From the IMG/VR virus record IMGVR_UViG_2609459839_000005: a stretch of 24,594 nt of DNA; one strand, 5' to 3'. Source of the DNA: a virus. Taxonomy: Duplodnaviria > Heunggongvirae > Uroviricota > Caudoviricetes. Positions 14,991 to 15,144 of this stretch are shown here, piece by piece; the stretch's first letter is position 1, and every line of letters begins with the position of its first letter. The notes beneath the pieces were generated by a model that was given only the letters and a program-made list of their open reading frames with translations, was not told the origin of the DNA and ran no database searches. The translations under genes and the position numbers were made by a program.

Positions 14991-15066
14991 GCCGACTTAG
15001 CTCAGTAGGTAGAGCAACTGACTTGTAATCAGTAGGTCACCAGTTCGATTCCGGTAGTCGGCACCA
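14991..15066 (+). tRNA. tRNA-Thr (anticodon UGU)
   Basis: 76 nt, hand-folded: 7-bp acceptor stem (GCCGACT/AGTCGGC), D-arm GCTC/GAGC, anticodon stem ACTGA/TCAGT with loop CTTGTAA, T-loop TTCGATT, 3' CCA. One A-C mismatch in the T-stem. Confidence 0.8.
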
Positions 15067-15069
15067 TAT

Positions 15070-15144
15070 GCGGGTATCGTATAATGGCTATTACCTCAGC
15101 CTTCCAAGCTGATGATGCGGGTTCAATTCCCGCTACCCGCTCCA
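15070..15144 (+). tRNA. tRNA-Gly (anticodon UCC)
   Basis: 75 nt: acceptor GCGGGTA/TACCCGC, anticodon stem TCAGC/GCTGA with loop CTTCCAA, T-arm GCGGG-TTCAATT-CCCGC, 3' TCCA. Closely resembles my recollection of E. coli glyT, with compensatory acceptor-stem changes. Confidence 0.85.

Follow-up and report, generated by a model that had tools for sequence, protein, structure and literature searches.

Why should a prophage carry its own copies of two transfer RNA (tRNA) genes that its host already possesses? The question is raised by the IMG/VR record IMGVR_UViG_2609459839_000005, a stretch of 24,594 nucleotides (nt), hereafter the window, which is a Rac-type lambdoid prophage. A tRNA-Thr(UGU) gene and a tRNA-Gly(UCC) gene lie there in tandem, in a late region whose order, all on the + strand, is a DUF1133 Q-like gene, the tRNAs, then the holins from 16379 on (Table 1). 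An initial annotation, made from the letters of the DNA, had proposed such a pair, 3 nt apart, downstream of the antiterminator and ahead of the lysis region. The pair is real and the coordinates it had given are exact: ARAGORN predicts these two tRNA genes in the window and no others, and both also match the Rfam family RF00005, whose gathering score is 29 bits (73.8 bits, E = 1e-14 for tRNA-Thr; 65.5 bits, E = 2e-12 for tRNA-Gly), which is far beyond chance. The spacing and the setting were also correctly read, with an antiterminator family call that is borderline in Pfam. Both genes are annotated by RefSeq/PGAP in records 100% identical to the window over 14700-15500, and the pair is a common, already annotated element, not a new one. 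We conclude that it is a functional-looking tRNA mini-operon of host ancestry, a mobile module of enterobacterial lambdoid prophages, which most likely boosts the supply of two minor tRNAs that the host encodes in single copy and whose codons are over-used in phage genes.

The host ancestry is apparent when the pair is aligned with its counterparts in Escherichia coli K-12. The tRNA-Thr gene is identical to thrU at 76 of 76 positions, a fact that the initial annotation had overlooked, while the tRNA-Gly gene matches glyT at 72 of 75, the differences being at gene positions 6, 56 and 66. Two of these, C6 to T and G66 to A in gene numbering, pair with each other and convert the acceptor-stem pair C6-G67 into U6-A67. 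The third is a G to A change at the fourth base of the T-loop, position 57 (gene position 56). The proposal that the Gly gene is a diverged copy of glyT with compensatory acceptor-stem changes is thus correct for one base pair, and it had left the T-loop change unmentioned. Position 57 is a purine in tRNAs, and the phage gene scores against RF00005 as well as the host gene does (65.5 versus 64.9 bits for glyT). The anticodon arms of both tRNAs are identical to those of their host counterparts. The identity elements are G1-C72, C2-G71, G35 and U36 for threonyl-tRNA synthetase (ThrRS), and U73, G1-C72, C2-G71, G3-C70, C35 and C36 for glycyl-tRNA synthetase (GlyRS); none of the three tRNA-Gly differences falls on a GlyRS identity element.

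The likeness to the host thrU-tyrU-glyT-thrT-tufB operon extends to the order of the genes, Thr(UGU) preceding Gly(UCC), and to the anticodon arm, the discriminator base and the first three acceptor pairs of tRNA-Gly. It stops there: the window has neither tyrU and the 116-nt spacer nor thrT and tufB, its own spacer is 3 nt long, its promoter, leader and flanks are unrelated to those of the operon, its tRNA-Gly carries U6-A67 and A57, and the module stands in the late region of a prophage. A recent capture from the host was rejected on the grounds of these unrelated flanks. The perfect identity of tRNA-Thr says nothing on the date of capture, because the thrU and glyT genes of Salmonella show the same three mismatches to the window pair as those of K-12 (98.1% identity over 154 nt).

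How widespread the module is was estimated with a 60-nt query covering the junction only. The Thr-TAT-Gly junction occurs in 878 of 5,426 complete E. coli genomes (16%), at 1,092 places and with up to 5 per genome; the places that were sampled were all annotated as tRNA-Thr and tRNA-Gly. A scan across species was noisy, with mostly chance matches outside enterobacteria, and was usable just for a list of enteric genera: among the matches listed in enteric species, the junction was present in E. coli, Shigella flexneri, E. albertii, E. ruysiae, Citrobacter braakii and Enterobacter hormaechei. An exact-pattern scan detected it in at least 120 IMG/VR contigs, and the isolated phages SerU-LTIIb, phi467, vB_EcoS-683R6, vB_EcoM-606R7, vB_EcoS-689R5, PhiR47_1 and JLK-2012 carry the pair. 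Literature searches returned no paper discussing this exact Thr-Gly pair.

Variation was surveyed in 117 viral copies of the pair, 113 of which have TAT as spacer. The Thr gene is identical to thrU in 72 copies and differs from it by the D-loop changes T16C/T20C only in 21. For the Gly gene, identity to glyT was found in 52 copies, the U6-A67 pair alone in 33, and U6-A67 together with further substitutions in approximately 14; two copies hold the U6.G intermediate, and in three others compensation is seen at another pair, G48A with C64T in the T stem. The T-loop change of the window at position 57 was present in none of the 117. Since the substitutions are compensatory or located at tolerant loop positions, this variation fits selection to fold.

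The location of the pair is also recurrent. That tRNA genes lie downstream of Q is a textbook feature of lambdoid phages, and among the 80 viral contigs with enough flank, a Q-type protein is encoded directly upstream of the pair in 47. Three Q families are represented, namely DUF1133 (25 contigs), Phage_antiter_Q, PF06323 (20) and lambda-type Q, PF03589 (2); a DNA methylase gene (12) and a gene for an ORF6N protein (8) were other upstream neighbours. In the window itself, the protein encoded upstream gives a match of E = 3.8e-107 to Pfam DUF1133 and one of E = 5.5e-79 to PHROG 753, 'anti-termination protein Q-like', and it barely reaches the cut-off of Phage_antitermQ, PF06530 (26.2 bits for a cut-off of 26). 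As a sequence search of the PDB gave no match for this protein, its assignment as a Q derives from Pfam and PHROG, and we call its antitermination activity putative.

Between this gene and the tRNAs, a consensus scan detected a terminator-like hairpin followed by a sigma-70-type promoter-like site (Table 1). A terminator similar to this hairpin occurs in JLK-2012 and, ahead of the promoter for the tRNAs, in four-tRNA clusters. The promoter-like site ends 65 nt before tRNA-Thr and predicts a transcription start near 14932. Of 36 distinct upstream regions with this layout, 31 have a match of at least 9 of 12 consensus positions at the same place; the conserved leader motif CGGTTCYGAGG follows 6-8 nt after the end of the -10 element, and the upstream sequence is 76% A+T. 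This promoter-leader module was found behind DUF1133, methylase, lambda-Q and PF06323-Q genes, and because it occurs behind four types of upstream gene, it goes with the tRNAs and is not the cognate site of one particular Q. The site is therefore probably a dedicated tRNA promoter rather than the late promoter itself. Between the stop codon of the Q-like gene at 14634 and position 14720, neither the consensus scan nor reading of the sequence yielded a convincing site for a late promoter.

The predicted transcript begins with a 59-nt leader, for which RNAalifold gave a consensus helix in 21 distinct leaders. Positions 14933-14938 pair with 14978-14983, a tandem G.A follows at 14939-14940/14976-14977, and 14941-14944 pair with 14972-14975. 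The helix, composed of GGTTCY/RGAACC, the tandem G.A and GGGG/CCCY, joins the 5' end of the predicted transcript to the bases that precede tRNA-Thr. In the alignment, 94.7% of its cells are paired, whereas sliding the partner by 1-3 columns lowers this to 58-74%; both sides are changed in four pairs, and the covariation score is above that of 500 out of 500 shuffles. Because the leader sequences are related to one another, this amounts to moderate support.

Downstream of tRNA-Gly, the trailer holds a long hairpin (Table 1), which is present in at least 36 viral contigs with the pair, with substitutions that mostly preserve pairing. It has no RefSeq annotation and belongs to no Rfam family. Of the 5,426 complete E. 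coli genomes, only 49 have the 356-nt trailer in which it lies. Further on, the terminator-like hairpins of region 15508-15584 are the candidate end of the tRNA transcription unit. A search of Rfam at relaxed thresholds with leader and trailer returned sub-threshold hairpin-like matches only, plus a weak match to STnc100 (15334-15506, + strand, 18 bits for a gathering score of 47). A match to the same family with 107 bits occurs in phage JLK-2012 after tciB, in the equivalent interval of its late region (L126 4475-4647). A preprint reports matches to STnc100 and to tRNAs near prophage Pas small RNAs (doi 10.64898/2026.05.13.724894, 2026).

What benefit could such a unit bring? The initial annotation had suggested that the codons decoded by the pair, ACA and GGA, are enriched in the AT-rich cargo genes, and had named a comparison of codon usage with the host as the check. 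We took 32 core genes of strain F9792 (8,699 codons) for the host, and the intact relative prophage L005 (62 coding sequences, 14,174 codons) for the phage. Host core genes contain 6.8 ACA and 6.4 GGA per 1000 codons, i.e. fractions of 0.129 of the Thr and 0.095 of the Gly codons. In the whole of L005, 14.6 ACA and 15.2 GGA per 1000 codons were counted (fractions of 0.253 and 0.217), meaning that ACA is 2.15-fold (Fisher p = 9e-8) and GGA 2.37-fold (p = 1.6e-10) more frequent than in the host core genes. The skew relative to the host is present, and the suggestion survives this comparison. In the AT-rich open reading frames (ORFs) of the window (G+C content below 0.42), the figures are 20.6 ACA and 10.7 GGA per 1000 codons (fractions of 0.342 and 0.224). 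Both codons are thus enriched in these AT-rich ORFs as well as in L005, but the skew is prophage-wide and not specific to the cargo. The codons most enriched in L005 over the host by ratio are AGA, ATA, AGG, GGA, TCA, CGA and ACA; by absolute excess, GGA ranks second and ACA third of 61 codons.

On these grounds, we regard codon supplementation as the probable selective reason for the pair. The two genes would be transcribed from their own sigma-70 promoter through the structured leader, and in lytic growth Q-modified RNA polymerase arriving from further upstream would probably read them as well. Host RNase P and 3'-end enzymes would process the precursor, and the host synthetases ThrRS and GlyRS would charge its products, given that no known identity element is altered. 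As each host isoacceptor has a single gene, the prophage copies would double the gene dosage for the readers of ACA (plus ACG and ACU) and of GGA/GGG; tRNA-ThrU is indeed the only UGU tRNA in MG1655 (PMC12445682). The benefit would then lie in translating phage genes faster or more accurately, given that the phage uses these codons roughly twice as often as host core genes do. Our data show directly that the genes are present and intact, how they relate to the host genes, that the module recurs, that the codons are skewed, and that the promoter-like site and the leader helix are conserved; expression, processing, charging and fitness benefit are inferred.

Several points weigh against codon supplementation. 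Lambda has no tRNA genes and displays a similar overall skew (13.2 ACA and 12.7 GGA per 1000 codons in all genes, fractions of 0.209 and 0.183); lambdoid genomes in general have this skew. The late genes do differ: those of lambda are near host usage (10.1 per 1000 for both ACA and GGA, fractions of 0.139 and 0.131), whereas those of L005 have a higher share of ACA among Thr codons (0.229, p = 2e-4) and of GGA among Gly codons (0.197, p = 0.002), which hints at a specific link between the tRNAs and these codons, in a contrast of a single phage with a single phage. The late genes likely to be the most expressed are poor in ACA and GGA, and in the putative capsid gene (L005 30654-31682), ACA accounts for 2 of 30 Thr codons and GGA for 4 of 32 Gly codons. 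The promoter and the terminators are consensus matches only. Finally, since the prophage of the window has lost most of its late genes, a benefit to the phage is moot in this particular copy.

Some of these points are those expected if the pair were a neutral passenger, taken from the host thrU-tyrU-glyT-thrT operon and kept through hitch-hiking at a mosaic junction, with no measurable benefit to phage or host. The Thr(UGU)-then-Gly(UCC) order mirrors thrU...glyT, the sequences are identical or nearly so to the host genes, lambda has its skew without tRNA genes, and the pair survives in a prophage stripped of late genes. We nevertheless find this account unlikely. Not only are the flanks unrelated to the operon, with tyrU and the 116-nt spacer missing, but the 3-nt spacer is fixed in 113 of the 117 copies, the substitutions are compensatory or fall at tolerant loop positions, the promoter-like site and the leader helix are conserved across diverged contexts, and the module has reached 16% of complete E. 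coli genomes, with as many as 5 copies in one genome. Taken as a whole, these features speak for long-term purifying selection on a phage-adapted unit.

A different benefit would be counter-defence, the phage tRNAs replacing host tRNAs cut by defence nucleases, with P2-OLD as the foremost candidate. Once lambda Gam has activated it, P2-OLD is reported to cleave host tRNA-ThrU at a paired CNG motif, after C28 and after C40, so that lambda-infected P2 lysogens die; phage genes for tRNA-Thr(UGU), among them the one from lambdoid phage 21 (tRNA-Thr21), rescue them, resistance requires an altered motif plus a shorter anticodon stem, and host tRNA-ThrU protects little or not at all (PMC12445682). 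Phage JLK-2012, whose Q is essentially identical to Q21 (PDB 6P18, 6JNX; E around 1e-108), fits this idea, since it has Asn-Thr-Gly in the same slot, and its Thr allele (L126 3495-3570) carries G42T and T43C, which shorten the anticodon stem to 3 base pairs (bp; TCATC) and change CAG to CAT. At least 4 of the 117 viral copies are changed at both positions 42 and 43.

The window allele has none of these changes. Like phage 21 and JLK-2012, the window has Thr-TAT-Gly after a Q or Q-like gene, followed by tciA-tciB and lysis genes, and a tRNA-Gly with U6-A67. JLK-2012, however, is ordered Q, promoter, terminator, Asn-Thr-Gly, tciA, tciB, yjhS, S, R, and it differs from the window by its Q21, its additional tRNA-Asn, a terminator directly before the tRNAs, the lack of a separate promoter-leader module, and the altered Thr anticodon stem. 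Among the features linked to P2-OLD resistance, the window Thr has the UGU anticodon, and neither the altered CNG motif nor the shortened stem: it keeps CUG(28-30)/CAG(40-42) as in thrU and the full 5-bp stem ACTGA/TCAGT identical to that of thrU, precisely the state that hardly protects (PMC12445682). The anticodon arm of its tRNA-Gly is that of glyT, with no anticodon-loop divergence of the kind by which defence-evading phage tRNAs are recognised (PMC10264068), and the host-identical Thr allele is found in 72 of the 117 copies. An anti-P2-OLD replacement tRNA was consequently rejected for the window allele, both defining changes being absent, and as the explanation of the pair, counter-defence appears to us quite unlikely. 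To judge from their anticodon stems, the module family includes candidate P2-OLD-resistant alleles, of which the window copy is not one.

It has similarly little likelihood, in our view, that the pair is the core of a larger, undescribed RNA unit expressed in the lysogen, consisting of its own promoter, the 59-nt leader, the tRNAs, the hairpin trailer and two terminators. By analogy with the 3' external transcribed spacer of a host tRNA operon, leader and trailer could then be freed by tRNA processing and act as regulatory RNA. The window Thr would represent the ancestral, OLD-sensitive state, from which resistant alleles (of the JLK-2012/phage 21 type) and Arg-UCU alleles would arise repeatedly. 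As for tRNA-dependent lysogeny, in which a phage tRNA offsets a host tRNA disrupted by integration, or a relic of an attachment (att) site, in which it is a duplicated part of that site, they are barely conceivable here: the former exists in mycobacteriophages (PMC10865867), and the pair-bearing relative SerU-LTIIb integrates at serU, but both readings were rejected on the insertion site of the intact relative, between ttcA and uspF and not in thrU or glyT, and in addition both tRNAs are full length and mid-genome, some 18 kb from int in L005, and the host thrU and glyT sequences are kept in 5,421 of 5,426 genomes.

Codon supplementation, the preferred reading, also fits the longer tRNA clusters in which the module takes part. 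About half of the viral contigs have a four-tRNA cluster that ends with the pair, in the order Met/Ile(CAU), Lys(UUU) or Arg(UCU), Thr(UGU), Gly(UCC). These clusters have another layout, with a terminator, then TTGCAA-17-TATTAT, and the first tRNA some 8 nt further on, without a leader. If the CAU tRNA is assumed to be an ileX-type Ile, the anticodons CAU, UCU, UCC and UGU would read ATA, AGA, GGA and ACA, all of them phage-enriched. We also observed that the second gene of these clusters is, depending on the contig (L006-L065, various), Lys(UUU), Arg(UCU), Phe(AAA) or without assignment.

Other known systems resemble the module in part. The ileZ-argN-argO genes of 933W-type phages reportedly lie downstream of Q. 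Such Shiga toxin (Stx) phage clusters share with the window the slot between the antiterminator and the toxin or moron and lysis genes, and they read host-rare A-ending codons; the window differs in that it has Thr-Gly only, lacks a toxin gene downstream, and possesses a promoter-like site and a leader of its own. Among the tRNAs of T4 are Thr(UGU) and Gly(UCC), for which codon compensation is the classical explanation. The tRNA-Thr and tRNA-Gly genes of T4-type clusters are around 84% identical to the window pair. They belong, however, to virulent phages with at least 8 tRNAs, Thr and Gly are not adjacent (the match is in two pieces about 340 nt apart), and their sequences are clearly diverged from the host genes.

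The best phage match is the LT-IIb enterotoxin prophage SerU-LTIIb (KU052038), with 93.5% identity over window positions 14991-15498. This match, query positions 292-799 of the 14700-15500 segment, spans tRNA-Thr, tRNA-Gly and the trailer, and two holins and an endolysin follow. SerU-LTIIb differs from the window by its two copies of the module, in one of which the Thr body has a UCU anticodon and, by that anticodon, reads as Arg, and by the LT-IIb toxin genes after its lysis genes, to which nothing in the window is comparable. Its 'tRNA-Arg(UCU)' (L002 1122-1197) derives from the phage Thr body through G35C, A31G and G24A, an anticodon switch.

Table 1. Position of the tRNA pair and of the features around it in the window.
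Feature	Position	Strand	Remarks
Q-like antiterminator candidate, DUF1133 protein, 180 amino acids	14092-14634	+	Last gene of the nin-like block DUF1367 - YbcO - DUF1133
Intrinsic-terminator-like hairpin with T run	14720-14745	+	CCCGTTTAATGCGGG then TTTTTTTAT; about 86 nt past the Q-like stop codon; consensus scan
Sigma-70-type promoter-like site, TTGAAA-16-TATTAT	14898-14925	+	10 of 12 consensus positions; behind an A/T-rich stretch
Leader, 59 nt, with conserved helix	14932-14990	+	RNAalifold consensus of 21 distinct leaders
tRNA-Thr(UGU)	14991-15066	+	76 nt including encoded CCA; ARAGORN anticodon TGT; Rfam
Spacer TAT, 3 nt	15067-15069	+	Direct reading of the sequence
tRNA-Gly(UCC), glyT-type	15070-15144	+	75 nt including encoded CCA; ARAGORN anticodon TCC; Rfam
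Long hairpin in trailer	15259-15357	+	None of 200 shuffles as stable (minimum free energy -47.2 kcal/mol, z = -5.9); about 115 nt past tRNA-Gly
Terminator-like hairpins with T runs	15508-15529 and 15557-15574 (region 15508-15584)	+	Consensus scan and reading of the sequence
TerB/TciA-like gene, frameshifted (moron block)	15717-16143	+	In identical relatives, RefSeq has 'tellurite resistance TerB family protein, frameshifted'
DUF3927/TciB-like gene, intact (moron block)	16140-16292	+	Pfam DUF3927
Terminator-like hairpin	16341-16356		Between the tRNAs and the holin gene; consensus scan
Holin	16379-16771	+	First gene of the lysis cassette
Second holin	16761-17036	+	Lysis cassette
Start of M15 endolysin	Lysis cassette 16379-17254	+	Cut off near 17232 by a deletion

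The remainder of the window is consistent with the Rac type of the prophage, whose markers are intR, xisR, ralR/RalA, recET, kilR and hokD/sok. In the RefSeq records identical over 14700-15500, the order is intR, xisR, ralR, recT, recE, kilR, hokD, DUF1367, DUF1364 (YbcO) and DUF1133, followed by tRNA-Thr, tRNA-Gly, the frameshifted TerB-family gene, DUF3927, two holins and the M15 endolysin. The intact relative L005, approximately 48 kb long, from strain 214-4, sits between ttcA and uspF, which is the Rac position. Three small RNAs score above the Rfam gathering threshold in the window, namely RalA, the antitoxin of RalR (1557-1735, +), sok, the antitoxin of hokD (12322-12493, +), and DicF (7275-7326, -).

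In the moron block (15717-16292), matches to PHROG 632 and 1470 were found, and the frameshift of the TerB/TciA-like gene is also annotated by RefSeq in strains F9792 and 214-4. The two holins of the lysis cassette belong to Pfam Phage_holin_8 and Phage_holin_3_7. Colinearity of the window with a relative (L001) stops at 17232, and the intact lysis cassette is present in L005; compared to intact relatives, the window is deleted from the middle of the endolysin gene (around 17232) into the tail region. The first gene past the deletion junction (17601-18776) is an AT-rich ORF of 391 amino acids (G+C content 0.36) with an HSDR_N domain, the N-terminal domain of type I restriction enzymes. A baseplate J gene comes next, and relatives have the same HSDR_N ORF among their tail genes. 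Between the replication genes and hokD, at 10299-11934, lies an AT-rich gene pair on opposite strands, whose counterparts in a relative are annotated by RefSeq as 'sce7726 family protein' and 'beta family protein', and which may be a defence or cargo island.

As a discovery, the pair carries little weight: wherever the genes occur in RefSeq they are already annotated, and about one complete E. coli genome in six has the module, as do several sequenced phages. Minor leads are the helix of the leader, the hairpin of the trailer and the relatives with a switched anticodon. The promoter-leader module and the trailer hairpin, conserved and unannotated, could be small-RNA candidates. The module is of more use as a natural control for work on P2-OLD. 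A single slot holds both OLD-sensitive alleles, identical to thrU as in the window, and resistance-type alleles, and a direct test of the effect of dosage alone is therefore possible. In addition, because three positions differ, the phage tRNA-Gly can be distinguished from that of glyT by tRNA sequencing.

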